The notes under the pieces are model-generated. The model was given only the letters and a program-made list of their open reading frames with translations. It did no database searches and was not told where the DNA came from. Positions 4,843 through 61,231 of a DNA stretch of 64,000 nucleotides are shown in pieces. The DNA lies in NCBI GenBank assembly GCA_022451925.1, contig JAKUNL010000001.1:141157-205156 (forward strand), read 5' to 3'. Source of the stretch: Dehalococcoidia bacterium (GTDB lineage Bacteria > Chloroflexota > Dehalococcoidia > Lucifugimonadales > UBA3495). Both the position numbers and the translations under genes were made by a program. How positions within the stretch are numbered: the first letter of the stretch is position 1; each line of letters begins with the position of its first letter.

Positions 4843-4905
4843 AAAAATGGCCGGGCCCGTCTTTTTTTCTGATGAATTCGCCAGACAAAAAGACGGGCCC
4901 GGCCA
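4843..4905 (-). terminator. Intrinsic terminator (19-bp perfect inverted repeat followed by a U-run on the minus strand)
   Basis: TGGCCGGGCCCGTCTTTTT (4848-4866) / AAAAAGACGGGCCCGGCCA (4887-4905); A5 at 4843-4847 reads as U5 on the minus strand. Confidence 0.75.
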
Positions 4906-4948
4906 ACTCTGGGTTATTGTGCTCGCCCTTAGGTACAAACCGGGGTCA

Positions 4949-5098
4949 AGGGGCGATGGTAGACATTGGCCTGGGCCCGACGTACGGGATAACTTATTTC
5001 GAGCTGTCCGCTACGAAACAATCACCTCGTCGTGTCCAGACTGATGCCTACCATCGCCCCTGCGTATTAAACTATCATCCATATACCTTCACCTCCTT
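4949..5098 (-). other. Small-ORF/long-hairpin element 1: SD AAGGAGGTGA, 23-aa ORF (5082-5011, MDDSLIRRGDGRHQSGHDEVIVS) embedded in a long fold-back hairpin
   Basis: Perfect SD at 5098-5089, ATG at 5082, TAG at 5013-5011; 14-bp perfect inverted repeat 4949-4962/5048-5061 extended by imperfect pairing up to an apex just after the stop codon. Confidence 0.6.
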
Positions 5099-5125
5099 CA
5101 AAAATTCCCGCTAAGCGGTTAAGGT

Positions 5126-5155
5126 ATTCTAACAATAGGGATTTTTCAGTGTCAA
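5126..5155 (-). promoter_or_regulatory. Strong sigma70-type promoter driving element 1
   Basis: Minus strand TTGACA-18 nt-TAGAAT with TGn extended -10. Confidence 0.75.
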
Positions 5156-5240
5156 TAGAATTTCTCCGTTATAGCGTGGTTTTTATCTCGTGTTAACCGG
5201 GGTTGAGGCGTTAAAAAGTTGGCTCAGGGTTATTTATTCA

Positions 5241-6179
5241 ATGCGTATAGTTTTCATGGGAACTCCATCCTTCGCAGTCCCGGTACTCACCAATTTAACG
5301 AGTATAAGCGATAGCCAGGTCGTCGGCGTTTACACACCCCCGGACCGTCCATCCGGACGCGGCCGTCGATCTCAATCCTCGCCGGTCAAAGAGTACGCTC
5401 TTAAACACGGCCTGCAAATTTTCCAACCAAATAATTTTCGATCTCCAGACATACAGAATCAGTTAGCAGAATTAAGACCTGACGTAATCGTCGTCGCCGC
5501 ATATGGGAAACTACTTCCCAAACCAATTCTTGATCTGGCACCCTTGGGCTGCCTCAACATCCACCCATCTATACTCCCGAGGTACCGAGGCCCGTCTCCT
5601 GTGGCCACATGCCTTTTGAGTGGCGACCTGATTACAGGAGTCACCATTATGCTGTTGGACGACGGTATGGATACAGGAGCACTCATTGCCCAGCATGAAT
5701 ACTTCTTAAAAGGTGATGAGACAGCCGAACGACTGACAGTAGAATTGTTCGAACTCGGCGGAGAGTTGTTAAAAGAGACCCTGCCCAAGTGGCAGTCGGG
5801 AGAATTGTTATCAGAACCCCAAGATGAGTCTAAAGCTTCTGTCACTAAAAAATTCGAGCGGTCAGACGGCCTAGCTGACTGGTCGTTAAGTGCGACAGAA
5901 CTCGAACGCCGAGCGAGAGCGTTCACACCCTGGCCAGGGCTATTTACGAACTGGAATAATAGTATTCTCAAGATTATTGAAGTTTCCACAATTCATTCGT
6001 CGTCAACAGAATTTGTGCCAGGAACTGTAGTTGGAACCAATCACCGTGATGTCGCAGCAGCGGTAGCAACAAGCGAGGGATTTCTGGGACTGCACAAAGT
6101 CCAGATCGAAGGAAAGCGAGCACTAGACGCCAGAGCTTTCCTGAACGGTTCACCGTCTTTCATTGGCTCACAATTGTAG
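5241..6179 (+). CDS. fmt: Methionyl-tRNA formyltransferase
   Basis: MRIVFMGTPSFA, VVAAYGKLLP, CLNIHPSILPRYRGPSP, GMDTG, RAFTPWPG; start moved to ATG 5241. Confidence 0.96.
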   Translation: MRIVFMGTPSFAVPVLTNLTSISDSQVVGVYTPPDRPSGRGRRSQSSPVKEYALKHGLQIFQPNNFRSPDIQNQLAELRPDVIVVAAYGKLLPKPILDLAPLGCLNIHPSILPRYRGPSPVATCLLSGDLITGVTIMLLDDGMDTGALIAQHEYFLKGDETAERLTVELFELGGELLKETLPKWQSGELLSEPQDESKASVTKKFERSDGLADWSLSATELERRARAFTPWPGLFTNWNNSILKIIEVSTIHSSSTEFVPGTVVGTNHRDVAAAVATSEGFLGLHKVQIEGKRALDARAFLNGSPSFIGSQL

Positions 6180-6262
6180 TAATTAACCAAAATCACGCCC
6201 CAAGCATTGTTATCTCATTTCACCCAGCAAATTTAAGAGACGCAGACAAACGAGGAAAACCA

Positions 6263-7222
6263 ATGACACAGCCAAATACTCGACAAATACCCGATGAGGC
6301 CCAGGTGTTGGACTGGATGGAATCTCTCAGCAACTGGGGCCGATGGGGTGAAGACGACCAACTTGGGTGTTTGAACCTGATTACTCAGAAAAAACGGATA
6401 CAGGCCGCAGCTTTGGTCCAAGACGGTATTCCGGTAAGTTGTGCCCGCCCTATCAGCACTGACATGAACGCCGATGTCACGTTCCAGGTTCAACGGTTTA
6501 TGGTGGACAGTGGTGAAGGTCGGATGGAAGATTCACCAGAGCGTCAGTACACTCGACGAGGCGCTGCTGAGTTCATTGGCATGGTCTTCCACGGACAGAG
6601 CATCACCCATATCGACGCTATGTCCCACTATTCTTGGAAAGGAAACCTGTACAATGGCAAGCCCGCAAATTTGATCACATCGCGACAGGGCGCACAGACT
6701 CACTCCATCGAAGCTGCCTACTCAGGAATAATCACTAAAGGTATCCTGCTGGACCTGCCAAAACTCAGGGGCGTGGAGTATCTGGATCCGAACGAGCCAG
6801 TGATGCCATTGGATTTGCTGGAAGCGGAGGAGGCCCAAGGGGTCAAGATAGAAGAGGGTGACATACTCCTCGTACGAACCGGCAACTACAAAATGAGGCT
6901 CGCTAATCCGCCAGCTCAATCAGGTGAGCCCATGACTGCCTGTCAGGTAGCATGCACTCCATTATTCAAAGAGCGCGGTATCGCTATGCTAGGGACTGAT
7001 ACATCCAATGATTTCAGACCGTCCCATTACAGTACTGTTGGTTCTCCGTTGCACACAATGTGTCTCGTAACAATGGGTCTGTGGTTGATAGACAACGCGA
7101 ATCTGGAAGAACTTTCAGAAGCCTGCGCCCGTAGGAACCGCTACGAGTTCATGCTTACCCTCGCACCACTGAGACTGCGCAACGTAACTGGTTCTCCGGT
7201 AAGCCCTATCGCGTTATTCTAA
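6263..7222 (+). CDS. Cyclase family protein (kynurenine formamidase-like metal hydrolase)
   Basis: NWGRWGEDDQLGCLN, HGQSITHIDAMSH, GDILLVRTG, C-terminal TGSPVSPIALF. Confidence 0.88.
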   Translation: MTQPNTRQIPDEAQVLDWMESLSNWGRWGEDDQLGCLNLITQKKRIQAAALVQDGIPVSCARPISTDMNADVTFQVQRFMVDSGEGRMEDSPERQYTRRGAAEFIGMVFHGQSITHIDAMSHYSWKGNLYNGKPANLITSRQGAQTHSIEAAYSGIITKGILLDLPKLRGVEYLDPNEPVMPLDLLEAEEAQGVKIEEGDILLVRTGNYKMRLANPPAQSGEPMTACQVACTPLFKERGIAMLGTDTSNDFRPSHYSTVGSPLHTMCLVTMGLWLIDNANLEELSEACARRNRYEFMLTLAPLRLRNVTGSPVSPIALF

Positions 7223-7302
7223 TGACTACGCGGTACTCACAGACACGAGGAGTCGAGAGTGAATCCAAGCCCCTTTTTGCGTTTTGTGGTGCCTGCCATC
7301 GA

Positions 7303-8601
7303 CTACTTCAAGACAGGTATGAACCGTTTCAGTATGATTGAGGAAAATGATGTGCTCAACAGAATGACCCCAAAAGTCAGCATAGTAATAGACGGGGCCA
7401 CAAACCCATCAGTCAACTGAGAACCGAAAGATACCAGAATATCCGTCCCTAAGTCGGTCACCGCCGGTGGAACATCGGAAACCCTGTCTGCACTGGTCTC
7501 CCAAGCGTCGGACAACGCTTCCGGGACTTTGGATTGAGCTATCTTTCCAACCGCGAAGAAAAACCCACCGGTGATGATAAGGGTGGTTCCTGGCCAACGT
7601 AACATTCCACTCAAGGTTGGAAAGAATATCAGTCCCATGATAGCAGTCCCACCAATCACCATAACCAATGAAGTCATATCTCCAAAGTTACTGGCCTTGG
7701 ATATCCAGTCTCGTCCACCAGCCAGATCTGCCCTGAGCTGCGACTCAGTGCGGTCGCCATCCCACTCTACTATCTGACTTATCAAATCGAACTGGCCTGT
7801 CCCTGTCAAGTTCTCTCGAACGCCATCAATGGCCGTATCAATCTTAGGTTCAGCCAACAATCGAGCAGAAACCTTTAGGACCTGAATCGTGTCTCCATTT
7901 TCAAATGGCGCACGCAGGTCCTCTTTACTGTTCTCGAGAATCGCGGATGTTGACTCGTTCAAACCAGCCCCGTCAATCAAACTGCCATAGGCCAGCTCGA
8001 AAATAATCACACGACAGACTGGCTTAATCTCTTCCAATGAGGGCGCCGATTTGGGAACAACACCTCCCGCTAACTGATCGAACATAACTCTGAAGGTGTC
8101 GGCAACACTTTGTGCAGCATTAAGAGAACAACCGCTAAAGTCAGAATCTTCCACTTCTAATTCGAGTATTCGTTTATCGATATAATTGATCATTACCGGT
8201 TTGACGTTATTTAACGGTAGGTTCAGGTCGATATACAGTCCCAAATTTTCCGCATCTTCGTTAAAGTAGTCGACTGTTCGCCCAATTGCGCCTTCAACCT
8301 CAGATTGGATGTATTCCGGCGGCATAATTTCCCGGAGGAGCTCAACGACTTCTTGATGGCTTGCAATCTGGATATCGCCGAGTAATCGTCCCGTGGTTTG
8401 TTCCAATTCGCCATCCAGTAAGACGTCGTTGTAGATACGATTGTAAGTGTCCTCTGATTCTAAAGTGTTGGTATAGAAATCTGCGCTAAGGAGTTTACCG
8501 GCAACATTGTTCACAATTAGGTAAGAGAGAAAACCGACAAAGATAATTACAAAAAGCACCAATGCGACAAAAGCTCGGAATAGAGGAATTAAACAGCCCA
8601 T
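7303..8601 (-). CDS. Hypothetical membrane protein (one N-terminal TM helix, large acidic domain, about three C-terminal TM helices)
   Basis: 432-aa ORF; hydropathy pattern only, no recognisable family motif. Confidence 0.75.
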   Translation of the reverse strand: MGCLIPLFRAFVALVLFVIIFVGFLSYLIVNNVAGKLLSADFYTNTLESEDTYNRIYNDVLLDGELEQTTGRLLGDIQIASHQEVVELLREIMPPEYIQSEVEGAIGRTVDYFNEDAENLGLYIDLNLPLNNVKPVMINYIDKRILELEVEDSDFSGCSLNAAQSVADTFRVMFDQLAGGVVPKSAPSLEEIKPVCRVIIFELAYGSLIDGAGLNESTSAILENSKEDLRAPFENGDTIQVLKVSARLLAEPKIDTAIDGVRENLTGTGQFDLISQIVEWDGDRTESQLRADLAGGRDWISKASNFGDMTSLVMVIGGTAIMGLIFFPTLSGMLRWPGTTLIITGGFFFAVGKIAQSKVPEALSDAWETSADRVSDVPPAVTDLGTDILVSFGSQLTDGFVAPSITMLTFGVILLSTSFSSIILKRFIPVLK

Positions 8602-8784
8602 GTCAATTTACTAACCGATAGATAGACCCGGTACCCGGATGACTCCGGTGCATTCAATGTGGCTAATAATAAGTTATTTAGCATGTGGGAGCCTTAGAGC
8701 TTATTAATCAACTGCAAAATCGGATGAGAATACAAAGGCCAGATTCATTCAATCTCGAAGTGTTTACCGAAATTATCAGGTGGT

Positions 8785-9633
8785 CTAGAAATTGGGTTTG
8801 ATGTCCTGCAGGCGTCTGATTCGTTCTGCCATGGGAGGGTGGGTCGAAAAAATCTTGGACATACTGGCTCCGCTCAGTGGATTCACTATGAAGAGATGAG
8901 AAGCTCCCTCAGCAACCTTCATCGGACGTGTTTGAGAAGCCCTCTCCAATTTTTGAAGAGCGCTAGCCAGGGCCAACGGATCTCCAGACGTATGGGCTCC
9001 AGTGGCGTCTGCCTGGTACTCCCTCGTGCGAGAAATTGCCGCACGAACCACTCCGGCGGCCAAGGGCATGACAAAGGCCACTAGCAACAATCCTATGATG
9101 TTGCCTCCCCCACCCCGGCGTCCACCCATACCCCCGAACATGGCAGAAATCTGAGCAAACATTGCCAGCATGGAAATCGCGCCTGCAATAGTAGCCACCA
9201 TAGCCATAATTAAGGTGTCCCGGTTGCCGACATGTGCCATTTCATGGGCTAGGACACCACCCAATTCCTGTTTGTTAAGTATCCGTCGAATCCCGGTCGT
9301 CACTGCCACAGTGGCATGATTGGGGTTTCGGCCAGTGGCAAAGGCGTTAGGCGATTCAGACTCAATCTCAAAGACCTGCGGCATTGGCAACCCAGCCAAT
9401 GACGCCTGCTCGCGTACTATGCTATAAAGCTCTGGATCGTCAGATTCCGTGACAGCAGTAGCGTGGGTCATCTTCAAAGCTATCCGGTCAGAGAACCAAT
9501 AGGCTCCAAAGTTCATAGCAATGGCAATGATCAGGGCAATTATAATACCGCCAATACCTCCCAACATTGCACCCACCAACAGTAACAATGCCGACATAGT
9601 TATCATCAAAAAGAATGTTTTTACTGTGTTCAT
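8785..9633 (-). CDS. htpX: Zinc metalloprotease HtpX (M48)
   Basis: PNAFATGRNP, VLAHEMAH (HExxH), SRTREYQAD, FSTHPP. Confidence 0.96.
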   Translation of the reverse strand: MNTVKTFFLMITMSALLLLVGAMLGGIGGIIIALIIAIAMNFGAYWFSDRIALKMTHATAVTESDDPELYSIVREQASLAGLPMPQVFEIESESPNAFATGRNPNHATVAVTTGIRRILNKQELGGVLAHEMAHVGNRDTLIMAMVATIAGAISMLAMFAQISAMFGGMGGRRGGGGNIIGLLLVAFVMPLAAGVVRAAISRTREYQADATGAHTSGDPLALASALQKLERASQTRPMKVAEGASHLFIVNPLSGASMSKIFSTHPPMAERIRRLQDIKPNF

Positions 9634-9807
9634 TTTAAATTAGACCTCTTGAATAAGACCCCTTCAATATACGACATATGACCAAACATCATTATTTGAC
9701 GGTTGTCGAGTCTCCTTATTGAATCGCTTGTAACCTTTTCTACAATTGTAGCATTTTGAACGTTGAGTATTATGTTAAAACTCTTGCCTGGCCAGTCTCG
9801 GTTTCAA

Positions 9808-9836
9808 TTGACACTCGGAGGGCTGAGTGATATGTT
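9808..9836 (+). promoter_or_regulatory. Putative promoter of etfBA
   Basis: TTGACA-17 nt-TATGTT. Confidence 0.6.
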
Positions 9837-9904
9837 TCACAAAGGGCTAGGCAGACTCGTTTCCGGACTATTGATGGGCGGCCCGCGGCGACATTAGGAG
9901 AGCT

Positions 9905-10705
9905 ATGGCTATCAAAATAGGCGTTCTAGCAAAACAGGTGATTGACCCGGAAATGCCCATGGCGGCATTCAAGATAGACGACGGTTCAAAAAAAGTAGTG
10001 CCACCGCCCAATATCCCGCCCGTCGTGAACGGCTTCGATGAGAACGCAGTAGAAGCCGCTCTAATGATTAAAGATGCCCAAGAAGCAACAGTAACCGTAA
10101 TTTCCACCGGAACAGAATTTGCCTTAGATGTGATGAAAAAACCGCTGTCTATGGGAGCCGACGAGCTGGTGCTTCTAGAGGACTCCATCCTCGAAAACAC
10201 CATTGATAGCTTTTTGACCGCCCAGTACTTAGCGGCGGCGATTCGCAAACTCGGTGGATTTGACCTGATAATCTGCGGACGCCAGGCATCTGACTGGGAC
10301 AATGCCCAAGTTCCCCTTGGTGTAGCGGAGATTCTCGGAATGGCATCCGTATCACTGGGTAAAAAAGTTGATGTAACCGACGGCAAGGTCAGGGTGGAGC
10401 GAATCATCCCTGACGGCTACGAGGTGGTTGAAGCCCCCCTACCATCTCTAGTCACCGTGAGTAACGAACTAGGCCAGCCCAGATATCCCACTCTACGTGG
10501 CATCATGGCTGCAACTAGGAAAAAACCGACCATATGGAGCGCATCTGACCTAGACTTAGATTCTTCCCAATCGTCGGCAAAGGTAAGTCTGCGAGATCTC
10601 TTCGTTCCGGTCAGTGACCAAGATTGCGAAATCATTGAAGGTGACGACCCCGGGGACTCGGGACGGCTACTCGCACTGAAACTACGGGAAGACAAGGTAA
10701 TTTAG
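9905..10705 (+). CDS. etfB: Electron transfer flavoprotein beta subunit
   Basis: KQVID, NGFDENAVEAAL, DLIICGRQASDWDNAQVP, PRYPTLRGIMAA. Confidence 0.93.
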   Translation: MAIKIGVLAKQVIDPEMPMAAFKIDDGSKKVVPPPNIPPVVNGFDENAVEAALMIKDAQEATVTVISTGTEFALDVMKKPLSMGADELVLLEDSILENTIDSFLTAQYLAAAIRKLGGFDLIICGRQASDWDNAQVPLGVAEILGMASVSLGKKVDVTDGKVRVERIIPDGYEVVEAPLPSLVTVSNELGQPRYPTLRGIMAATRKKPTIWSASDLDLDSSQSSAKVSLRDLFVPVSDQDCEIIEGDDPGDSGRLLALKLREDKVI

Positions 10706-10796
10706 TTAACTTCCTTTCGAACCCAGAATCGATAGGCGAGCTTAAAACTGGCGGCCCGCATGGCTTGTCAGTATTATTCCAAAAGCACGGGAGGCC

Positions 10797-11798
10797 GTGA
10801 TGGCTGAAGGAACCGGAGTACTGATCATTGGCGACACTTCAGGCGGAGAACTGGGCAGCACAACCCTTGAGTTGCTCGCCGCCGGACAGGCAGTCGCAAC
10901 TGAACTTGGAGAAGAACTGGCAGTCGCCCTTTTAGGTGACACCGTAGATGTACCAGCCCAACAGGCCATAGCTCACGGTTCTCAAAAGGTCTATGCGGTG
11001 AATCACCCCCTGCTGGCTCAATACCAGATTGATTTCCAATTGACAGCGGTGGAAGCTCTTTGCAATGAGATCAGCCCGCGTGTAATCCTAGTGGCTCGTA
11101 CTAACGAGGGCCGAGACTTGGCTCCCCGTCTCGCGTTCAGATTAGGGGTGGGACTAGCTCAGGACTGCTTGGAGGTCTCCATAGACCCCGCAGAGAAGAA
11201 ACTTCTTGCCAACCGTCCGGTATATGGCGGCAACGCAATCGCCGTCGTCAGCTGCGAAGAGACTCCACAGATCGCAGCTATTAGACCCAAGGCCTACGAG
11301 CCAACAGAGGCAGATCACTCACGTCAGGGTGAAATAGTTTCATTCCCTGTGGAACTAGACACATCGATGGCCAGAACTCAAGTGGTTGACACTGTAATCG
11401 AAGAGGCTGAAGGCATCAAACTAGAAGATGCCCACATTGTAATATCTGGCGGACGCGGCCTAGGCGGGCCAGAGCCATTTGCTCACCTCGAAGAACTGGC
11501 GAAAGTTGTGGGCGGGACAGTTGGTGCATCCAGGGCAGCAGTCGACTCGGGATGGGTGCCTGCGAGCTACCAGGTTGGGTTAACTGGCAAAACCATCACT
11601 CCTGACCTGTACATAATGGTTGCCATCTCCGGCGCTAGCCAGCACATGGCCGGCTGCTCCGGATCGAAAGTCATCGTGGCCATTAACAAAGACGCCGAAG
11701 CGAACATATTCAAAGAAGCCCGCTATGGGGTAGTCGGAGATTGGGAAACAGTTCTCCCTGCACTGACTGCAGCCCTTAAAGAACTAACGCAAGCTTAA
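10797..11798 (+). CDS. etfA: Electron transfer flavoprotein alpha subunit
   Basis: [44 protein letters not shown]. Confidence 0.94.
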
Positions 11799-11937
11799 GA
11801 ATCCTTGATAAAAGAAAGGCAGTTCCTCCGTAACCTCACGACGTGAGATGACCATGCCGTATGAAGTTGTAGCTTGCGTCGGAATCCGCAATTGAGGCAC
11901 CCGTTTCGCGTAAGGTGATTTTTCTTAGATAGTAAAC

Positions 11938-12798
11938 CTACTCCAAGACAATATTGTCTATAAGTCGAACTGCGCCCATCCATACCGCCGCAGAGACCAT
12001 CACTCGGCTCTCTACCACTTGTAATTCATCCAACGTCGACATATCGGCCACACTGACGTAATCTATCGTTTCCACCGCAGGCTCTGATTTCAAAATCATC
12101 CCTGCAGCATCACGCAACACATTGGCGTCGCGTTCTCCTCCAGACCATAATAGATACATCTGACACAGAGCCCGATATAGCACCGGCGCCGCGAATCTTT
12201 GTTCGGGAGAAAGTTGGTCGTTGCGGCTACTCATGGCTAGACCATCGGCGTCACGGATGGTTGGCATCACCACCACCTCGACTCCCATAGCCAGATCAAC
12301 CGTCAGTCTTTGAATCACCACGGCTTGCTGCCCATCTTTCTGCCCAAAGTAAGCACGAGTAGGGCGCGTCAAGTTGAACAACTTTGAAACTACGGTTGCC
12401 ACCCCCCGGAAGTGTTCCGGCCGATGAAGACCTTCTAGTTTGGAAGCCAACGGGCCCACATCCACCCAAGTGTTGAACCCTTCGGGATAGACCTCTCCCA
12501 CCGATGGTGCATAGACCAAGTCCACACCATGACGGCGCAGCAACTCTAGGTCATTTTCCATGTCTCTGGGGTATTTATCGAGGTCTTTCTTATCACCAAA
12601 CTGAGATGGGTTAACAAATATACTAACGGCAACCGTGGAGTTATCCGTGCGAGCTTGATTAATCAAGCTTAAGTGTCCCGCATGAAGAGCTCCCATAGTC
12701 GGCACCAGGGCAACCGGCTTTGCTGCTTCACGACAAGCCTGAGACATCTCTTCGTTGGTGGTGATTACCCGCATGCTATGCGGAATCGCCTGCGCCAT
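11938..12798 (-). CDS. panC: Pantoate--beta-alanine ligase
   Basis: VPTMGALHAGHLSL, SIFVNPSQF, HFRGVATVVSKLF, YFGQKDGQQ, GLAMSSRN, RLIDN. Confidence 0.97.
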   Translation of the reverse strand: MAQAIPHSMRVITTNEEMSQACREAAKPVALVPTMGALHAGHLSLINQARTDNSTVAVSIFVNPSQFGDKKDLDKYPRDMENDLELLRRHGVDLVYAPSVGEVYPEGFNTWVDVGPLASKLEGLHRPEHFRGVATVVSKLFNLTRPTRAYFGQKDGQQAVVIQRLTVDLAMGVEVVVMPTIRDADGLAMSSRNDQLSPEQRFAAPVLYRALCQMYLLWSGGERDANVLRDAAGMILKSEPAVETIDYVSVADMSTLDELQVVESRVMVSAAVWMGAVRLIDNIVLE

Positions 12799-12852
12799 CT
12801 GATTTCACCTAATTCTCTATTCAATGTTGTCGATTCAGTCGCTGATAAATAA

Positions 12853-13818: not shown

Positions 13819-14011
13819 CGGAGCCTCAGGCAACTGTGGGAGGGCCTTTTTCGAGCCAAGCACGCGCCCCAAAACATGGGGGCGTATTTGAAGTACAATA
13901 TCGACTTTAAGGCCGTCTCGGTCATATCAGATCCCAGCGGCAATCCTGTGACTAAGCTCTAGTTCCGGTCATGCCTAGCGCTCACCCCCTCTAAAGGTAG
14001 ATGGCGGCTTA

Positions 14012-14040: not shown

Positions 14041-14072
14041 ACAAATCAAACCATCTATAAAACACTGAAAAT

Positions 14073-26520: not shown

Positions 26521-26961
26521 GGAGGGTCATGCAGGCTGGGTGATCGCCGTTCTTCTATTGTGGAAGGAGGGAGGAAAGTCCGGGCTCCTCTGGGCAGGGT
26601 GCTGGGTAACGCCCAGGCTTCTAGCGTCTGCGGTAACGCTCCGTTAGGAGACGGAAAGTGGCACAGAAACATACCGTCCTTCTATCTCTAGAAGGATAAG
26701 GGTGAAATCGGACGGTAAGAGCGTCCGACCGTTTGCGGCGACGCAACGGTGGCTAAACCCCACCTGGAGCAAGGCCAAATAGGGGGACATAGGCGCCTGG
26801 CCAGTCCCCGGGTTGGCCGCTTGACTGCGACGGTAACGTCGTTCCGCCAAAAGCGGACATACGCCGGCTTAACCACCGGCGTTTGGGCTAGATAGATGAT
26901 CACCACCTTCCCCTTGCGGGGAGGATACAGAACCCGGCTTACAGGTCTGCAGAACCCCTCC
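26521..26961 (+). ncRNA. rnpB: RNase P RNA (bacterial type A-like)
   Basis: GAGGAAAGTCCGGGCTCC, GGAAAGTGGCACAGAAA, GGTAAGAG, GGCTAAACCCCACCTGGAGCAAGGCCAAATAG, AGATAGATGATC, ACAGAACCCGGCTTA; terminal P1 pairing GGAGGG.../...CCCTCC. Confidence 0.96.
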
Positions 26962-43030: not shown

Positions 43031-43035
43031 ATAAT

Positions 43036-52795: not shown

Positions 52796-52798
52796 CTA

Positions 52799-53251
52799 TT
52801 ATTCAGTCCCGTTAGTTTTTTCTTCTTGGCAACCCGCGCAGACACCAGTGACCGCAAAGTGTTCCAGATCAGGTTCGAAACCAAATTCTTTGTTTAAAGT
52901 GTCGTGAAACTCCGCTAAGTAATGTGGACTCAAGTTAAAGGCACCGTTACAGGACCGGCAGACCATATGGTGATGGTGGCCGTCAGGGTCGGTGAATTCA
53001 AAATGAAGCCGATCCCCAATAGCAACTTCAGTCACGACACCAAGTTCCTTGAACAAGTGCAATGTTCGGTAAACCGTGGCAATGTCCATATAGGGATAAG
53101 ATTTTTTGGCTGCCTGAAACACCTCATCAACGCCCATGTGCCCACTGCTAGAAGAAATGATAGACAGGACAATCAAGCGTTGCGGGGTTAAACGATGGCC
53201 CTTCAATCGCAAAGTCTCAATGGCAATTTCGTGATTGATCATGGCTCTCAT
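52799..53251 (-). CDS. Fur-family transcriptional regulator (Zur/Mur-like)
   Basis: RLTPQR, ATVYRTL, HHHHMVCRSC, GVCAGC. Confidence 0.92.
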   Translation of the reverse strand: MRAMINHEIAIETLRLKGHRLTPQRLIVLSIISSSSGHMGVDEVFQAAKKSYPYMDIATVYRTLHLFKELGVVTEVAIGDRLHFEFTDPDGHHHHMVCRSCNGAFNLSPHYLAEFHDTLNKEFGFEPDLEHFAVTGVCAGCQEEKTNGTE

Positions 53252-53293
53252 CTTCGTCGCCCTTCGACCAATTATTTATGCGAAAAAAAGTTA

Positions 53294-53343
53294 TTGCAAT
53301 TAATTGTAACTACTGAGTGTAAAATTTTGCTACGGAAAGTCAA
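53294..53343 (-). promoter_or_regulatory. Promoter and operator-like palindrome of the second Fur/ABC operon
   Basis: Minus strand TTGACT-16 nt-TACACT; palindrome TTGCAATT/AATTGTAA at 53294-53309 just downstream of it. Confidence 0.5.
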
Positions 53344-53456
53344 TCGCATTTTGAACTAGGTTAAGCGGTTAAGATATTCCGAAAAACGTTGATTAAGAAG
53401 ATTCTTGCACACGATATAAGGCCTCGCCTGCATTTTAATGGTATGCCAACCCATCG

Positions 53457-54725
53457 TCAGACTTTGACCCGAGAGATCATTGCCGCGGAAACAACCCGGG
53501 TAACAGCCATAGCGATGAAAACGATAGGCCAAGGGCTTCCCGCCATGTCCAATACCGCTGCGAATATCAAAGCCTGTGCCCCAGCGTAAGCGTAGCCATG
53601 GGCATCTAGCACACCGGAGGCCGTTCCCGACATTCTTCTGCCAGCGATGTCTACAGCGACGGTTGACATGGGAGACATACCCATAGAAAGACCGCCAATC
53701 AGCAACAGCAACGCTCCCAGAGTAACGTTAACCGGTGGAGCCATTGCGATGCCCACCAGAACCAGGGCGCTAACCATGCAGGAAAAAATGACCATTGGCT
53801 GGCGGCGGCTGTCCAGATAGCGGTCGGAAATTATCCCTGATATTGGTGGAGCAAACAGATAACCCAGGGGCAACAGTACGGTAAGGACAACGGTGGACTC
53901 TATCGATAATCCACCTTCTTCGAAATAATATATGGGAACCCAGGTTGTCAGACCGTATCGGACTATGTTCTCCAAGCCTTTCACATGGCAAGCCAGTAAG
54001 AATCTTGAGTTGCCCAGTAGAACCCTGTAGGGACCCAAACCTTTTAGGCGCTTCGGGTCGATGGCCTCCGGCGTAGCCGAGACCTGGTCATCTTCTACAT
54101 ACTCGGGCAGTCCGACATCCGTAGGTCGATCTCGCGCAATAAAGTAAAAGGCGATTCCTAAAACTGCAATGATCAACGGAGGATAGCGAAATGAAGCACG
54201 CCAGCCCCATTCTGCACCAACATAGCCGGAGATCCACCACATGGTTACCATTGCTCCGCCAGCGGCCGTGCCCACAATTCCCAAAGCCATACCCCGGTTC
54301 CGACGAGGCCACCATTGAGAGATCATACTGATCCCAGGAGCCCAACAAGCAGCATTCACGAAACCAGCAATTCCCCAGGGTATGGCCATAGTCACTGCAG
54401 ATGTAGCAAAACTGGTGATTAGGTTGAATACGGTGGTGAGGATAGCCCCAATCATCACCCATAAACGGAGGCCAAAAGTCTCAGCAAGTCTGCCATGGAC
54501 CAGGTCGCCCAAGCCAAATCCCCAAAGAAGCAGTGCATTTACAAGACCGACCTCAAAATTGCTAAGACTAAGATCCTCTTTAACCAACGGCGCAACGGGC
54601 CAAAAATTGAACCGGCCAAGATAAAGAAACAGGTAGAAACCAGCGAATGCCAGCAGAACCCGCCACTTAAATATATGATAACTGTTGGGTAAGTCTTCAT
54701 ACTGAGCTGTTCGGAAACTGCTCAT
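53457..54725 (-). CDS. MFS transporter (GlpT/OPA-like)
   Basis: FYLFLYLGRFNF, SQWWPRRNRGMALG, RYGLTTWVPIY, GTASGVLD. Confidence 0.88.
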   Translation of the reverse strand: MSSFRTAQYEDLPNSYHIFKWRVLLAFAGFYLFLYLGRFNFWPVAPLVKEDLSLSNFEVGLVNALLLWGFGLGDLVHGRLAETFGLRLWVMIGAILTTVFNLITSFATSAVTMAIPWGIAGFVNAACWAPGISMISQWWPRRNRGMALGIVGTAAGGAMVTMWWISGYVGAEWGWRASFRYPPLIIAVLGIAFYFIARDRPTDVGLPEYVEDDQVSATPEAIDPKRLKGLGPYRVLLGNSRFLLACHVKGLENIVRYGLTTWVPIYYFEEGGLSIESTVVLTVLLPLGYLFAPPISGIISDRYLDSRRQPMVIFSCMVSALVLVGIAMAPPVNVTLGALLLLIGGLSMGMSPMSTVAVDIAGRRMSGTASGVLDAHGYAYAGAQALIFAAVLDMAGSPWPIVFIAMAVTRVVSAAMISRVKV

Positions 54726-54928
54726 GAAATATGATCCGAAGAGGGTACTAGAAGGTGATGTTGAAGGGTGAACATACTAAATAGAAAATACTAACCTTGC
54801 TTCAATATCCAATGTAGTTATGTATTACCGATTAATCCAAACTTCCTTTTTAACGATTTTTCAGTAACGTGTAGTTTGGAACACTAGCTTGCCATTTGGT
54901 GGACATTCTGACGTTGAATACTTGAAAC

Positions 54929-54991
54929 TAATAAGGCCGAAAGGCGGACCAATTGTTTTCAATTAAAGCGGCACGCCTTTCGGCCTTATTA
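54929..54991. terminator. Long inverted repeat, probable terminator of the VOC gene
   Basis: 18-bp inverted repeat TAATAAGGCCGAAAGGCG / CGCCTTTCGGCCTTATTA. Confidence 0.6.
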
Positions 54992-55017
54992 TTAGACAGT
55001 ACTGTTCCTGTGAGGTG

Positions 55018-55503
55018 CTATGCGCCTGCGGGTATACGGGCCTTAGCGATAGCCTCAAGTTCTTCATTGGTTTGAGCCATGATGTCGATGGCATCTCCCA
55101 GAGGCTGGGGTACATCATATGGAGTCCGGACGTATAGCTCAATCCGATTCCCCTCTGGATCAAAGAAATACATACCAAAGGCTATACCGTGACTAACAAT
55201 CCGATCTATCTCAACTCCAGGTTCGGCTACCAATCTGGTATGAAATTCCCTCAGGTCCTCAAGAGTAGGAACGATGAATGAGATCTGTTGAATAACTTTG
55301 GCGTCGTCACGGGTGACACGCCCCTTCATCAACACGAATTCGTGGTGCTCGCGCTCTTTGTCAGCGGTGAAGAAAGTCATTCCTCGTTCTTCTAAATCCT
55401 CATCCGAGATTGTGAGACCCAATACACGGCTGTAAAAGTCCCGCATCATCATCAGGTCTTCAGCATAGATTCCAACGTGTCCTAGGGATTCAATCTTTGG
55501 CAT
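55018..55503 (-). CDS. VOC/glyoxalase family protein
   Basis: LGHVGI, FYSRVLGL, HHEFVL, MYFFDPEGNRIELY. Confidence 0.9.
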   Translation of the reverse strand: MPKIESLGHVGIYAEDLMMMRDFYSRVLGLTISDEDLEERGMTFFTADKEREHHEFVLMKGRVTRDDAKVIQQISFIVPTLEDLREFHTRLVAEPGVEIDRIVSHGIAFGMYFFDPEGNRIELYVRTPYDVPQPLGDAIDIMAQTNEELEAIAKARIPAGA

Positions 55504-55581
55504 GCCTGCCTCCTATATGATTATCTGGTGTTTTAGATTTAAGAGCCTTGGTCATTAGTTACGGGGATTATACACCAAGGA

Positions 55582-57834
55582 TCACGTCTCAGATGTCTCT
55601 CGCATCGCTCTAAATAGTTTCTCTGAACTCACGGGTATCTCAGATATGCTCACTCCAGTAGCATCCAGGATAGCGTTAATGATGGCCGGCGCTACAGAGC
55701 TGATGCCCTGTTCACCAATGGCCTTGCCCCCGTATGGAGAAGGACCGCCGCTCTCGCTGGCAACAAGAACAGTCCGCAGCTCCGGCATATCGGGCATGGA
55801 AGGAATCTTATATTCACCCATGGACAGGGTGGTAACGTGTCCCTCATCGTATTGTAAGTCCTCGGTCAAAGCGTACCCGATTCCCTGCATAACCGCGCCG
55901 TCAATCTGACCTTGGTGTCCTAACGGATTCAAAATGGCACCGACATCGTGTGCAGAGGTGAATTTGGTCAATAGGACCTGGCCAGTCTCTATATCCACCT
56001 CCACTTCCGCGATTTGAACGCAAAAGACTGTAATGTCCTCATCACGCTCAGAATCGTAAGTGTGATCAGCCTCCATAAGTCCACCGGCAAGCGTTACCAG
56101 GGCACCCAAGCTCATAGGAGTCTTGCCAGGAGAGATTACCTCGCCCTGCGAGAATCCGGTTTCGTCCTCCGGCCAACCGAACATATCCGCAGACATGGCA
56201 ATCAACTGTCGGCGCAACTCCTGGGCGGCGCGGAAGACAGCCTGTCCAGCAACGTGGGTAACACGGCTGCCGCCAACTCCGGTCTCGAAAGCCACGTCAT
56301 CAGTGCTCCAGTTCTCCAATTTGATCTGGTCGTAGGCCACACCTAATTCCTGACCAAGTATCTGACGGAGCACAGTGTAGAAACCGGAGCCTGTATCGGG
56401 AAGCGCAGTGTACAACGTGACTAACCCCTCGGCATCGATGGTTATCTTTACGGTGGAACTGCCCGCCCCGACATGTCGCTCACAGAGGGCAACGCCCCGA
56501 CCGGTCAATTTACCTGCTATCTGAGGTTTGGGCTGATTATATTCAGCTTCTCCCACCGCAGCATCAAGAGTCTTCACTCCCATGATGTCCTTCCAGTAAT
56601 GGCCAAGTGGAGATGCATCACCGTCTTGAACTAAGTTCTTTAAACGAAATTGCACCGGGTCCATTTTCAGTTCACGGGCAATCAAATCAATTTGCGCCTC
56701 GGCGGCAAAGATAGACTGCGGGTCCCCTGGTGCGCGCATACTTCCGCAAGGCACTTGATTCGTATAGACAACGTCAGAGTCGATGTGGGCGTTGGGAATC
56801 TTATATGGTCCGAGGCAACGGTATCCGTATGTGACTCCCCTGGCGGGTTTAAAGGCCGCATACCCGCCACTGTCGTAGACTAGATGGGCCTGTCGAGCAG
56901 TTATCGACCCGTCTTTCATAACTCCGGTCTTGAATGTCATAACCGCCGGGTGTCGAGGGTTACCAGCCATCAATTCCTCGATATAGGTCATAGTCATGCG
57001 TACAGGGCGACCAGTGGCCTTGGATAGCCAGAAACCCAGATGGGTGTCCATGAACCCACCTTTACCGCCAAAGTCCCCGCCGATGGTAGTGGCGTTGACC
57101 CGAATCTGGTCTGTCGGCATGTCTATGCCTTCAGATAATTGCTGGCGGACCTGGAAAGGCATCTTGCTATTCACCCATGTCTGTACCCTACCGCTGTTGT
57201 CCAAATAGACCACCGATGCGTGGGGTTCTATATAGGCCTGGTGCTGGTGGTTCGTCTTAAAAGTATGTTCAAAAACCAAATCTGCTTCGGCAAAACCTTG
57301 CTCAACGTCACCGTTGCTCCAACTGGCATGACCAGCGGAGTTGGGATGGACTTGGTCGCCATCTGGAATCCCGAGGTAATCCATAAAATCAGGATGTAAA
57401 ATCGGGGCGTCCGGTTTGAGTGAGTCATTTGGATCGAGGATCGGTTCTAGCTCGTCGTACTCGATCTGTATCAGATTCAGAGCAACCTCAGCTATGTCAT
57501 CATCCTCAGCAGCAACTGCAACTACTTTTTGCCCCGCGAACCTGACCACATCGCGGGCGAGGATAGGCATATCACGAAGCATCCGACCCACCAAGTGAGA
57601 AGGAATATCATCTGATGTCAACACCGCATGAACACCAGGTACTCTCCGCGCATTGGCTACAGAGTCAGCATCTATAGATACAATTTTGGCGTAAGGGAAA
57701 GGGCTACGCAAACACTTACCAACCAAGATGCCTGGCAGGTTCACGTCTGCTGGAAATATAGCCTTGCCGGTGACTTTTGCCGGCCCTTCAGCACGGCCTA
57801 CTGGCCTGCCAATGGTCTCGTATGAGCTGGTCAT
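55582..57834 (-). CDS. Xanthine dehydrogenase family molybdopterin-binding large subunit
   Basis: KVTGKA, HQAYIEPH, IGGDFGGKG, MRAPG, GQIDGAVMQGIG, GKAIGE. Confidence 0.93.
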   Translation of the reverse strand: MTSSYETIGRPVGRAEGPAKVTGKAIFPADVNLPGILVGKCLRSPFPYAKIVSIDADSVANARRVPGVHAVLTSDDIPSHLVGRMLRDMPILARDVVRFAGQKVVAVAAEDDDIAEVALNLIQIEYDELEPILDPNDSLKPDAPILHPDFMDYLGIPDGDQVHPNSAGHASWSNGDVEQGFAEADLVFEHTFKTNHQHQAYIEPHASVVYLDNSGRVQTWVNSKMPFQVRQQLSEGIDMPTDQIRVNATTIGGDFGGKGGFMDTHLGFWLSKATGRPVRMTMTYIEELMAGNPRHPAVMTFKTGVMKDGSITARQAHLVYDSGGYAAFKPARGVTYGYRCLGPYKIPNAHIDSDVVYTNQVPCGSMRAPGDPQSIFAAEAQIDLIARELKMDPVQFRLKNLVQDGDASPLGHYWKDIMGVKTLDAAVGEAEYNQPKPQIAGKLTGRGVALCERHVGAGSSTVKITIDAEGLVTLYTALPDTGSGFYTVLRQILGQELGVAYDQIKLENWSTDDVAFETGVGGSRVTHVAGQAVFRAAQELRRQLIAMSADMFGWPEDETGFSQGEVISPGKTPMSLGALVTLAGGLMEADHTYDSERDEDITVFCVQIAEVEVDIETGQVLLTKFTSAHDVGAILNPLGHQGQIDGAVMQGIGYALTEDLQYDEGHVTTLSMGEYKIPSMPDMPELRTVLVASESGGPSPYGGKAIGEQGISSVAPAIINAILDATGVSISEIPVSSEKLFRAMRETSET

Positions 57835-57906
57835 AGAAGATCTCCGTTACTTGGATTTGGATTTCAGAGTCACTGTAGCCGTCGGGGATATGCACTTATT
57901 TTAAAT

Positions 57907-58548
57907 TTATTGAACATTAGGCACCGGCTTCCGGCCACCCGACCTAGCCCAATCAATCACTTGGTTTAGAATCGGTTGGATGTTCTGCGACGAATCCACG
58001 GCGTAATGTTCCCGTTGAACCGGCTCCTCAACAGGAACCATGCGAGTATAAATCAGCCATCCGGCATCAGAGTAGGTGTTCGAATAGCGATTAGCTTTCC
58101 GCTCTTTCAAACGACGTCTAACCGTGTTTTTGGGCGCTGTGACATGAACGATAGCCAACGGTGCCGCGGTGGTCTCTGATATGTCATAAATATGAGACCG
58201 AAAATCCTCATTCAGGTTGGTGGCATCAAATAAAACACTGTAACCGTTGACGAGGTAATACACTATCAATTGATAGCAGGAATTAAACACCCGGCGGTGT
58301 TCTTGGGTAGTGTACTTGGGATGCGGCACTATGACTTTCCGCAGTCTGTCCGTCTCCATGATAAGGAAAGGGACTTCCTCACTCAGCTTGGATGCGAAAT
58401 GTGATTTCCCGGTGCCTGGAAGTCCGCACATTGCTACTAACAACGGTTGTGATGGCATCCGAGGTTGAGCTATGACTAAATCTTCATCCAACGCCTCGCG
58501 CATGGATCTTATATCTTTCTGAAGCTGGTTTTCCAAATTCGAATCCAA
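57907..58548 (-). CDS. P-loop predicted kinase (AAA_33-like)
   Basis: MCGLPGTGKSH, DRLRK, FDATN, RRRL. Confidence 0.85.
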   Translation of the reverse strand: MDSNLENQLQKDIRSMREALDEDLVIAQPRMPSQPLLVAMCGLPGTGKSHFASKLSEEVPFLIMETDRLRKVIVPHPKYTTQEHRRVFNSCYQLIVYYLVNGYSVLFDATNLNEDFRSHIYDISETTAAPLAIVHVTAPKNTVRRRLKERKANRYSNTYSDAGWLIYTRMVPVEEPVQREHYAVDSSQNIQPILNQVIDWARSGGRKPVPNVQ

Positions 58549-58580
58549 TTACCGGATTTTATTGCAACCAAGTCTGTCAG

Positions 58581-58844
58581 TTAGAGCGTTGCATCGACAA
58601 CTCTTCGTAGAAAAATAAGAAAAATCAAAACGGCCATGGGACTAAAATCTAAACCGCCAAAGCTTGGCAAACTTCGCCGGACTGGCCCTAGAATGGGTTC
58701 GGTGATTTGATTAACGAACGTAATTATAGTAATTAGAGTTGGATGGGGCCTGCCGCCAGTCATAGGTATCACGAGCGATAGTATTACCCTGGCAAAGATT
58801 GCAAATGTGAAGAGGGTTATTACCGCATTGATTAAACCTGCCAA
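58581..58844 (-). CDS. yggT: YggT family membrane protein
   Basis: ITEPILGPVRRSLPSFGGLDFSPM; follows proC; probable TTG start at 58844. Confidence 0.88.
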   Translation of the reverse strand: MAGLINAVITLFTFAIFARVILSLVIPMTGGRPHPTLITIITFVNQITEPILGPVRRSLPSFGGLDFSPMAVLIFLIFLRRVVDATL

Positions 58845-58845
58845 A

Positions 58846-59652
58846 TTAACTTCCCTGTCCCAATTGAATAGACTTACGGAAGGCTGCATCCACAGCGCTT
58901 ACGATAGCTGCTGGAACACCTTCGTCCTCAAGCACTCGTAGAGCTTCAGCAGTGGTCCCCCCCGGAGAAACTACCATATCTTTCAACACAGCAGGATGCA
59001 TATCGGTATCCATTACTAGTTTGGTACTACCAAACACTGTCTGCAACGCCAGAGTTCGGGCCATATCCCTGGGCATACCGACGTAAACACCCGCGTCGAT
59101 CATGGCCTCAATTATTAGGAATACATAGGCTGGACCACTTGCGCTCAATGCAGTAGCCATGTCCATGTATTTTTCATCTGAAACGTATATTTCCTGCCCA
59201 ATCGTTCCTAAAACAGCTTTAATCAACTCACGTTTGGAGAAGTCCACACCATCTGAACAGGTCCAGAGCGTCATGCCTTCCCTAATCTGCGCTGGGGTGT
59301 TGGGCATCACACGCACTACGGACGGATGCTCCAGCCCATTAGAAAGGGTATGCATCGTGGCACCGGCGACTATTGACAGAGCAGTCTGCTTCGGATCAAG
59401 CTTACCTTTCAATTGCGCCATGACCGTCGCTAAGTCTTGAGGTTTGATAGCGAATACAACCAGGTCTGCTTCTTGAACCGACTTGAGATTATCGTTATCA
59501 ACCAAGATGCCGAACTTACGGGAGAGGTACTCACGTCGCTCCGGAATCGGTTCACCTACACTGATATCATCAGGCGCAGCCAATTTACTGGACAATACGC
59601 CGCCTAAGATCGCTTCGGCCATTTTGCCGCCACCAATAAAAGCAGCTTTCAT
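58846..59652 (-). CDS. proC: Pyrroline-5-carboxylate reductase
   Basis: FIGGGKMA, AIKPQ, VRVMPNTP, TALSASGPAY, VVSPGGTT. Confidence 0.96.
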   Translation of the reverse strand: MKAAFIGGGKMAEAILGGVLSSKLAAPDDISVGEPIPERREYLSRKFGILVDNDNLKSVQEADLVVFAIKPQDLATVMAQLKGKLDPKQTALSIVAGATMHTLSNGLEHPSVVRVMPNTPAQIREGMTLWTCSDGVDFSKRELIKAVLGTIGQEIYVSDEKYMDMATALSASGPAYVFLIIEAMIDAGVYVGMPRDMARTLALQTVFGSTKLVMDTDMHPAVLKDMVVSPGGTTAEALRVLEDEGVPAAIVSAVDAAFRKSIQLGQGS

Positions 59653-59791
59653 TTTATTGATCTGTTCCTTACCTGTGGTTGATTCACATACAAGCGAATA
59701 TTAGCCTGATTTACATGCCCCGAAAGGCGCAGCGTATTATATCATCGGGGTTGGTAATCAGCCTGAACACAGGATTCCGAGTCAAAGTATT

Positions 59792-60823
59792 TTATGCTGC
59801 GAACTCAGACATTCCGTCTCCCTTGGCGAGAGCTATCGCCAAGCGTATGGACTCCAGCATACTCTCATGAAAAGCTATTCCTTGGCCTGCAATATCAAAT
59901 GCTGTGCCATGATCGACCGATGTCCTGATGAATGGAAGACCCAGATTGGCTGTGATGCTTTCTTCGAACCCGTAAACCTTAACCGGAATGTGTCCCTGAT
60001 CATGATACATGCAGAGCACCACATCGTATTGGCCTTGAATTGCTTGGTGGAATATGATGTCAGCTGGAACAGGCCCAACGGCATTTATACCTTGAGACTG
60101 CGCCGCCTTAACCGCAGGCATAATTTCAGCCGATTCTTCGTTGCCCATGATTCCGCCATCACTACCGTGAGGATTGAGGGCAGCTGTGCCAATCCTTGGG
60201 TTCTTGAAACCGTACCGCACAAAGCTTTCATGAGTGAGCTCCAGGTATTCCAATATCCGGTCTTTTTTCACTAGGTCACAAGCATGACTCAGAGACCGAT
60301 GGGTGCTCAAATGGACTACTCTTAGGTTCTTGGCCATAAGCATCGTAGCTACCAATTTGCTCTTGGATAATTCCTGCAACAGTTCCATGTGCCCGATGGA
60401 CTTATATCCAGCAAGACTGGCTGCTTCTTTGTTTAGCGGCGCCGTGGCCAGGGCATCGACCACTCCAGCTAATGCTAACTGACCTGCTTTGGTCACCCAT
60501 TCCATAGCCGCTTTGCCGCAAACCGGGTTTATCTCTCCCACGGTGATGTCTTCCGGGTTCAAATTGTGAATGTCCACAACTTCAATGACACCAGGCTCAT
60601 CTCCGGGAAGAGTGAGATCATTTACTTCTTTGATCTTCACAGGCAGTCCTGTTAGTGCAACTGCCTGCTCCATTGCGAAAACATTTCCAACCACCAACGG
60701 ACGACACGTGGCATAGACCTGTGGGTCTGCCAAGGCTTTCACCACAACCTCAGGTCCGATTCCACATGGATCACCCATTGTTATTCCGATTGCGGGTTTT
60801 ATTGATTTTTCTGTTGAAGCCAT
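59792..60823 (-). CDS. pdxA: 4-hydroxythreonine-4-phosphate dehydrogenase family (PdxA/PdxA2)
   Basis: ITMGDPCGIGPEV, TAPLNKE, LNPH, GPVPAD, MYHDQGHIPVK, RTSVDHGTAFDIAG; start moved to ATG 60823. Confidence 0.93.
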   Translation of the reverse strand: MASTEKSIKPAIGITMGDPCGIGPEVVVKALADPQVYATCRPLVVGNVFAMEQAVALTGLPVKIKEVNDLTLPGDEPGVIEVVDIHNLNPEDITVGEINPVCGKAAMEWVTKAGQLALAGVVDALATAPLNKEAASLAGYKSIGHMELLQELSKSKLVATMLMAKNLRVVHLSTHRSLSHACDLVKKDRILEYLELTHESFVRYGFKNPRIGTAALNPHGSDGGIMGNEESAEIMPAVKAAQSQGINAVGPVPADIIFHQAIQGQYDVVLCMYHDQGHIPVKVYGFEESITANLGLPFIRTSVDHGTAFDIAGQGIAFHESMLESIRLAIALAKGDGMSEFAA

Positions 60824-61014
60824 TACGTTTTCCTCGGTCTTTATCAAGCGTCTTAGGTGGCAAAAAACCGTTATACTACGAATTTCGTTAGAATTTATTC
60901 AGTTATGTAATCAAGCGTTTCAAACGCGCCGAAATTATAGCATGGTTAGGGTTTTATGGCTTTTGATTTGTATGGTATGGTTAGGACTCTTTGAAGAGAT
61001 TTAAATAAACGAAC

Positions 61015-61050
61015 AAAAAAGAGTCCCCGACATTGGCCGCCGGGGACTCT
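61015..61050 (-). terminator. Intrinsic terminator closing the nrdJ 3' region / element 2
   Basis: Minus strand GAGTCCCCG-loop-CGGGGACTC followed by TTTTTT. Confidence 0.8.
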
Positions 61051-61171
61051 GGAAAGACAGCCTGGCTGGTTCAGGAACCGCACCGCACATGAGACTCGAT
61101 TAGCCGCAGCAGCAGTCGGCCTCCACACAACCCCACCTGTACTGGCCAGGCCTGCCTAAAATTTCTTTCAA
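61051..61171 (-). other. Small-ORF/long-hairpin element 2: 23-aa ORF (61171-61100, MKEILGRPGQYRWGCVEADCCCG) in a fold-back hairpin
   Basis: TTG 61171 to TAA 61102-61100; GGCAGGCCTGGC pairs with GCCAGGCTGTC, CAGG with CCTG, GAGGC with GTCTC, GAAAGA with TCTTTC; SD weak. Confidence 0.45.
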
Positions 61172-61231
61172 AGGTGTTCTTACCTGTCTCGTCCTCTTCC
61201 TAAATTAAAACAGATCTGGGCTTGGCCTTTT

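Follow-up and report, generated by a model that had tools for sequence, protein, structure and literature searches.

A candidate translation-coupled RNA switch upstream of rpsP in a SAR202-type Dehalococcoidia bacterium, and an unrelated hairpin in the 3' region of nrdJ

Two intergenic regions on the minus strand of a Dehalococcoidia genome, each with a 23-codon open reading frame (ORF) folded into a long hairpin, raise the question of whether they represent one kind of RNA and what such an RNA would do. Both lie in a stretch of 64,000 nt (GenBank assembly GCA_022451925.1, contig JAKUNL010000001.1, positions 141,157 to 205,156), called the window here, to which all coordinates refer unless another locus or contig is named. 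Element 1 is flanked by the divergent gene fmt and by the operon rpsP-khpA-rimM, and element 2 is located between nrdJ and pdxA. An initial annotation had grouped the two as one undescribed family sharing the peptide motif L5-x-R7-x-G9-x-x-R12. Based on genome comparison, covariance models and predicted folding, we conclude that they belong to separate, unrelated kinds. Element 1 is tentatively read as a translation-coupled RNA switch whose output, in its own family, would be read-through into rpsP-khpA-rimM. This reading as a whole is given a probability of about 45%, and the switch alone is likelier than its output. The 3' untranslated region of nrdJ, structured and ordinary in appearance, accounts for element 2.

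The building blocks on which the proposed family rested were all found. The ORF of element 1 occupies 5082-5011 (minus strand; ATG, 23 codons, TAG) and that of element 2 61171-61100 (minus strand; TTG, 23 codons, TAA). The sequences of both, and the two 23-residue peptides with their identical L5, R7, G9 and R12 and acidic residues at positions 3 and 19, were confirmed. Each ORF makes up the 5' arm of a hairpin whose apex lies close to the stop, and a hairpin with a U-run lies at the end of each element (4843-4905 and 61015-61050). The initial annotation had itself called four identities weak, and the match is at chance level: 108 of the 2948 other 23-codon ORFs in the genome (3.7%) share at least four identities with peptide 1, and the window itself contains 77 other ORFs of this length. 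No DNA similarity was found between elements 1 and 2 (best match 10 nt, E 0.1), nor any paralogue of either in the genome. That LxRxGxxR defines one family of short ORFs in hairpins to which both belong is a reading we give next to no credence: the likeness of ORF length and layout, in this single genome, speaks for it, but the peptide match is at chance level, the DNA is dissimilar, and element 2 sits in the nrdJ 3' region with neither start nor frame conserved.

Read along the minus strand, element 1 begins with a sigma-70-type promoter at 5126-5155 (TTGACA, 18 nt, TAGAAT, extended -10; 11/12 matches), followed at the predicted transcript start by a small 5' hairpin (CCGC-loop-GCGG, 5108-5118) found by folding. 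The Shine-Dalgarno sequence (SD) AAGGAGGTGA at 5089-5098 is maximal, complementary to the 3' end of the genome's own 16S ribosomal RNA (rRNA; contig C5), and this 10-mer followed by ATG occurs at only one place in the 2.4-Mb assembly. The 23-codon frame (5011-5082), which is likely translated, holds in codons 3-6 a conserved AU-rich linker, ATAGTTTAA (5067-5075), just 5' of the stem. It then runs through segment A (5029-5061, codons 8-18), the 5' arm of the long hairpin, to a stop at the apex. Segment B (4949-4981) is the 3' arm, and its 5' part B' (4969-4981) is predicted to pair either with A or with C', a competitor further downstream (4894-4906). The element ends in a long inverted repeat with a U-run (4843-4905), which captures C' and is predicted to be a constitutive terminator in the window genome. 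Element 1 folds far better than its shuffles (z -8.97). A separate rpsP promoter (4710-4738, minus strand; 11/12 matches) precedes the start of the downstream operon (3370-4659, minus strand), which comprises rpsP (4252-4659), khpA (3970-4197) and rimM (3370-3921). No promoter-like site was found on the plus strand over element 1 (4650-5250).

Covariance models built from same-family copies located element 1 in 21 of 151 genomes of the order overall. Specifically, they match the families f5 (5/5) and f14 (5/5), five genomes of f48, and 4/5 of the element's own family. The element is single-copy in 36/36 same-family genomes, a count that sets aside hairpin self-matches and one copy split over two contigs, and rpsP lies downstream in 30/30 loci examined. 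From 181 loci, five without a core match were removed and duplicates were merged, giving 143 rows. Three of these are chance matches without the hairpin and two have a variant SD missed by the script, which leaves 138 with a start found, and all 138 carry the SD and ATG 21-24 nt ahead of the stem. A promoter-like site lies upstream in 116/138 homologues, codon 5 is TTA in 135/138 and codon 4 is AGT in 115/138. Furthermore, GGAGGTG is invariant in two alignments of the homologues, and the motif CCG..GG precedes the SD in 86/133 SAR202-type homologues, compared to 7 of 120 control starts taken from the window's own genome. Outside the order, the covariance model R3 gave one weak match in 150 genomes of the class (8 of them of the same order); the weak R3 matches L270 and L271 were rejected as ordinary gene starts. 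A stricter start pattern returned, from 301 class genomes, one new true case besides the window, and phages and plasmids gave no matches.

The frame ends at the same place throughout: codon 24 is a stop in 113/113 family-type loci, against 0-3/113 at neighbouring codons, and the bases around this stop vary among loci. Within codons 8-20, four of the five four-fold sites are invariant in all 87 distinct 23-codon ORFs. Most variant codons elsewhere in the frame are non-synonymous (37/41 at positions 2-7 and 28/35 at positions 21-23), compared to codons 5-17 of rpsP in the same loci, where 41 of 71 variant codons are synonymous. Three reading frames of the same RNA are used across families, with 11 codons in f14, 19 in f48 and 10 in one lineage of the element's own family. 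As judged from these patterns, translation of element 1 is likely to be selected and the peptide sequence is not, given that the silent sites do not change and that all three frames are in use among relatives. The peptide motif, which the initial annotation had taken to be under selection, fails on the same grounds. Additionally, R7 is retained in only 54/136 element 1 orthologues, and all four residues occur together in 54/136.

That the peptide is nevertheless the product, as a small protein or an arrest peptide, appears improbable. Such a product would fit the prevailing length of 23 codons (115/143 rows) and the recurring starts, M-D/E/K-x-S-L here and M-D/S-S-S in the wider Chloroflexota class described below. 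It would not fit the frozen silent sites, the mostly non-synonymous change where positions are free, the use of three frames with lengths of 10-23 codons within the order, or the 13-26 unrelated residues in the phylum class. The first five codons may still have a role, with Ser AGU and Leu UUA as pause codons; The conservation of TTA at codon 5 may reflect either pausing or a constraint on the RNA itself. The frame has no stretch of codons for a single amino acid, as control codons matching the downstream pathway would form, and the lone AGT and TTA are kept as nucleotides. The peptides are polar. A programmed -1 frameshift at the UUA codon was considered and rejected, as the -1 frame stops within segment A and yields no longer product.

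The conserved middle of the frame coincides with a structure. Segments A and B form a covarying 28-pair hairpin that starts 21-24 bases after the AUG; 98-99% of cells are paired, and six pairs show two-sided changes, above 500 of 500 shuffles. Folding was evaluated on 134 loci, after nine of the 143 had been dropped as chance, truncated or ambiguous. The A:B hairpin is present in the free fold of 134/134 loci, and B':C' forms in 132/134 when the ORF is held open. The B':C' duplex, which the initial annotation had not noted, is better than its shuffles (z < -2) in 123/134 homologues. Two positions of B' that are mismatched in the pairing with A' are matched in that with C', and compensatory changes in B':C' are seen in f48. 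In these predicted folds, A:B and B':C' are mutually exclusive pairings that overlap the frame.

In the element's own genus, the competition is predicted to reach a terminator. In 10/13 same-genus loci with the genus-type terminator, termination is predicted to be off in the free RNA, with C' there unengaged and able to take the terminator's 5' arm, and on with the ORF covered. This predicted behaviour would amount to the logic of an attenuator placed before a small-subunit protein and a maturation factor. Contigs from four marine RNA libraries (three studies) cover element 1, and some continue beyond its 3' end and over the promoter of rpsP, towards or into rpsP.

The following mechanism is proposed. 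A ribosome would load on the maximal SD, meet the stem after a few codons, unwind the hairpin and reach the stop at the apex, thereby freeing the 3' arm. Untranslated RNA would keep the A:B hairpin and translated RNA would flip to B':C'. In the element's own family, translated RNA would terminate, and untranslated RNA would read on into rpsP-khpA-rimM. Such read-through would raise the supply of a small-subunit protein and its maturation factor at times of ribosome shortage, with the peptide as a probable by-product.

The anatomy of element 1, its conservation, its covariation and its indifference to reading frame are established. Translation, the switch and every output are what we infer from them, and a number of points weigh against the proposal. 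All switching derives from equilibrium folding with a crude ribosome footprint, and covariation was scored on structures derived from those same alignments. B':C' is not better than shuffles in 5/5 f5 copies, and the extra inverted repeat of the window copy, of which none of the 29 other aligned loci has a counterpart that would lock C', captures C' in both predicted states. A strict search found no local terminator in 22/47 loci, in 2/47 the terminator switched the opposite way, and it is predicted to be constitutive in f48 (4/4) and f5 (3/3). In the wider phylum class, it did not switch in 54/55 loci. Closing of the SD by a ribosome sitting at the stop was rejected as a mode of action, being predicted in only 1/55. 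The gene rpsP has its own promoter-like site in 89/98 homologous loci, and a constant downstream operon depending on the promoter of element 1 was not found: neighbours outside the element's own family are unrelated, and the next gene is convergent in f5. Finally, the RNA-library contigs carry no information on strand or transcript level, and DNA may be among them.

Since in other lineages the terminator is predicted to be constitutive and the neighbours are unrelated, an older role would lie in the RNA itself, whose state or decay would report ribosome supply. The same features bear on a different reading, in which element 1 is a stand-alone RNA for parking ribosomes. Its maximal SD would capture them, the stem beyond the initiation footprint would hold or slow them so that they are stored or buffered, the stop at the apex would allow exit without rescue, and any effect on rpsP would be secondary. 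This would account for the genome's strongest SD on a frame without a conserved product, for the spacing fixed at 21-24 nt, for the own promoter, the constitutive terminator and the unrelated or convergent neighbours in most lineages, and for the presence of about one copy per genome. Taken alone, however, it leaves unexplained the conserved competing pairings (B':C', and the pairing of the SD with segment A in 51/60 phylum loci), as well as the predicted switchable terminator of the genus, and we consider it doubtful.

A third reading makes element 1 the precursor of a small RNA acting in trans: RNase Y or RNase III would cleave the untranslated RNA at the AU-rich linker and the long helix, and one of the products would base-pair with target mRNAs. 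When A, B and C were scanned for duplexes with 2537 start regions of this genome, no target stood out (best z -3.8 to -4.8), and the stem sequence is unconserved beyond the order; this reading is unlikely. The translation-coupled switch remains the preferred reading of element 1.

The initial annotation had suggested that the elements may be lineage-specific. For element 1, this does not hold in a narrow sense, as its 5' motif and layout recur across Chloroflexota. In another order, a weak model match shares this layout and differs in its stem. A search pattern was taken from the 5' end of element 1 (SD, ATG, YAGT), with neither the hairpin nor the frame length included; it matched 109/401 phylum genomes, among them 24/27 of one family, and the reversed pattern matched 24 in the same set. 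One of the 109 genomes is unpublished and enters no other result. Seventy loci of the 133 rows were examined, of which 40 were picked by eye favouring recurring motifs and the other 30 were those the search returned, so the rates below are not unbiased. Removal of five ordinary genes and five frames under 9 codons left 60, of which 53 have a hairpin (z below -2) with at least 10 pairs across the stop, compared to 2/120 control starts. In metagenomes, a related pattern gave 23 matches, 17 of them distinct and 15 passing. The class shares AGGAGGUGA, AUG, a (G)AUAGU start and a short frame that forms the 5' arm with its stop at the apex. CCG..GG, which lay outside any pattern, precedes the SD in 14/17 metagenome and 12/54 phylum sequences. 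Segment A can pair with the SD in 51/60 phylum loci and 15/120 controls, but in only 1/136 SAR202-type copies; sequestration of the SD by segment A is thus not a feature of the SAR202 form, which has B':C' instead.

These sequence features suggest that the SAR202 form is likely homologous to the phylum class, and element 1 probably belongs to an RNA class that spans the phylum and has no catalogue entry. Most members of the class appear to be stand-alone, with a terminator predicted to be constitutive. It is possible, if short of our expectation, that Chloroflexota as a whole possess an undescribed housekeeping RNA, a stand-alone mini-message serving as gauge or store of ribosomes, and that element 1 represents its SAR202 form. 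Such an RNA would only capture ribosomes and be refolded by them, with neither a protein product nor an operon to lead, and it might reach cyanobacteria.

Further observations concern individual members. The start motif also occurs in two metagenome contigs, L384:1290-1480 and L394, each with a frame of 26 codons and a terminator; their hairpins are weaker (z -0.6 and -1.6). The peptide deformylase near L384 clusters with one labelled Synechococcus sp., from which the class may reach cyanobacteria. In 9/60 phylum loci (L304, L305, L307, L308, L356, L359, L360, L364 and L370), a biotin-ligase (birA-like) gene is found 120-250 nt downstream of the RNA. Family f39 (L095:1500-1640 and L311) has a 17-codon variant with a competing segment between A and B, by which the terminator itself would be one of two folds; in L095, an acetolactate-synthase-like gene follows 600 nt after the variant. 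In L351 and L352, which belong to one family, the RNA adjoins the 3' end of an rRNA operon.

Element 2 is a different matter. Its rod (61056-61156, minus strand), unrelated to element 1, is a hairpin of the nrdJ 3' untranslated region that is conserved but does not code for a peptide. It is followed by the intrinsic terminator of nrdJ (61015-61050, minus strand), and a similar terminator hairpin follows nrdJ in other genera that lack the rod. The window copy does not fold better than its shuffles (z -1.19), and in relatives the rod covaries, with 98.1% of cells paired and seven two-sided pairs. By BLAST, element 2 is present in 19/19 same-genus genomes and 0/41 others. A covariance model places the rod between the nrdJ stop and the shared terminator in four further genera. 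For five genomes from different genera again, the profile scored the terminator only or nothing at the nrdJ 3' region. The TTG-started 23-codon frame over the rod (61100-61171, minus strand) is a chance occurrence: a start codon at this position is found in 1/20 same-genus loci, namely in the window only, and 8/20 have a stop at or inside the frame, with frame-shifting indels in addition. Of the initial proposal of a translation-coupled RNA element, the part concerning element 1 therefore stands as the best reading, with a structured RNA, its own promoter, a frame likely to be translated and a start and stop kept among orthologues; element 2 lacks a conserved ORF start, length and frame. Neither element has further copies in this genome, and both rods covary in relatives.

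Within the genus, the apical sequence of the nrdJ hairpin is invariant; more diverged forms occur at the same place in genera g43, g10, g107 and g103, and no Rfam match was obtained for the hairpin. It could serve as an mRNA stabiliser or as the source of a 3'-derived small RNA. One near-identical RNA-library contig spans nrdJ to 61008 and ends there, a weak hint from one run; another run, X6, gave no coverage of element 2, which carries no weight either way. In the adjacent pdxA promoter region (60900-60975), genus-conserved blocks flank an extended -10 site and are possibly operator sites.

Three observations are independent of both elements. The class A RNase P RNA at 26528-26957 has a 44-nt insertion late in the molecule. 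A 319-residue frame at 6263-7222 is 77-92% identical in relatives and has no NCBIfam match. On contig C14 of the window genome, upstream of 31124 and 55950, the two closest acetolactate-synthase genes both have long leaders with a T-box-like end and a terminator.

SAR202 bacteria are abundant in the deep ocean, and to our knowledge almost nothing has been described of their RNA regulation. In element 1, the genome's strongest SD, a start and a stop are kept without the peptide, which suggests that it is the act of translation that matters. If the proposal is true in the element's own family, ribosome supply would be linked to genes of small-subunit biogenesis. Should the wider class prove to be a single family, Rfam lacks an RNA that is carried by an entire phylum; as many genomes of this phylum are nearly complete and some Chloroflexota are culturable, the RNA is directly testable.

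An Rfam scan of the window returned RNase P RNA only. At the two elements, there were sub-threshold microRNA-like matches on the terminator and none on the rods, so that neither is assigned to a known family. Similarly, 30 phylum and metagenome loci matched no family at gathering score except neighbouring rRNA. This bears on whether element 1 could be a diverged housekeeping RNA, namely 6S RNA, signal recognition particle (SRP) RNA or transfer-messenger RNA (tmRNA), with an incidental frame. RF00013 finds no 6S RNA in any of 61 genomes of the order, which leaves a diverged 6S RNA unaccounted for, and no SRP RNA match was found in this assembly. However, SRP RNA is found elsewhere in 56/61 relatives, and tmRNA elsewhere in this genome and 5/5 others. 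Element 1 has no covariance match to 6S RNA (RF00013) with its closing stem and central bubble, its ends form no closing stem, and neither element matches the SRP families RF00169 and RF01854. Moreover, none of 6S RNA, SRP RNA and tmRNA is characterised by a conserved SD, start codon and stop, and this reading is very improbable. A tmRNA identity (RF00023), prompted by smpB upstream of one homologue (L173) and by a likeness to tmRNA 5' ends, was rejected on finding a complete tmRNA elsewhere in this genome and in 5/5 others. A Rae1-type translation-dependent nuclease was also rejected, with PF05991 in 0/5 genomes. An rnk-leader identity rested on one sub-threshold RF01772 match (36.4 bits vs 55) in 1/10 phylum loci, driven by the terminator, and was discarded; element 1 itself has no RF01772 match.

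In the open literature, neither element 1 nor its start motif was found described; subscription journals lie largely outside this scope, and supplements could list a related motif. As far as their main texts are represented here, no such motif appears in PMC11109978, which covers a Dehalococcoides genome, or in PMC8632094, PMC6429828, PMC2864571, PMC2965389, PMC12390103 and bioRxiv 10.64898/2025.12.20.695498. Among described systems, the type I toxin aapA3/IsoA3 offers a partial likeness (PMC6733600): in the phylum class, a segment within the frame can pair with the SD, as in the transient hairpin of aapA3. In contrast, element 1 peptides are short, polar and unconserved, the element is single-copy at a fixed core-genome site, no antisense promoter was found over it, and the pairing of the SD with A is lost in the SAR202 form (1/136). 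A type I toxin mRNA was rejected, as no conserved hydrophobic or toxic peptide is encoded. The greA and rnk leaders, which may double as trans-acting RNAs (PMC2965389), are, like element 1, short terminated transcripts close to genes of transcription or translation, and a further role in trans is possible for both.

Closer to the proposed switch are the attenuators. The leaders of trp, his and ilv are the classical leader-peptide attenuators. Judged by conservation, element 1 has the leader frame with SD, start and stop that an attenuator requires. Together with leader-peptide attenuators and the upstream-ORF motifs ilvB-II and fthC (PMC11109978) and uORFC-6-1 before hflX (PMC8632094), it shares the SD, short frame, alternative hairpins and terminator; unlike all of these, it has no control-codon run, no conserved frame and no gene association that stays constant across lineages. 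The nearest counterpart is the bmrB leader of Bacillus subtilis bmrCD, for which read-through is proposed to depend on the translation rate and not on a series of control codons (PMC4191407). Both have a short leader frame that overlaps candidates for a terminator, an antiterminator and an anti-antiterminator (PMC4191407). They differ in that separate promoters serve element 1 and the operon downstream of it, that the element 1 RNA also stands alone before unrelated or convergent genes, and that its terminator is predicted to be switchable in one genus only. By this analogy, element 1 would work most like translation-rate attenuators such as bmrB.

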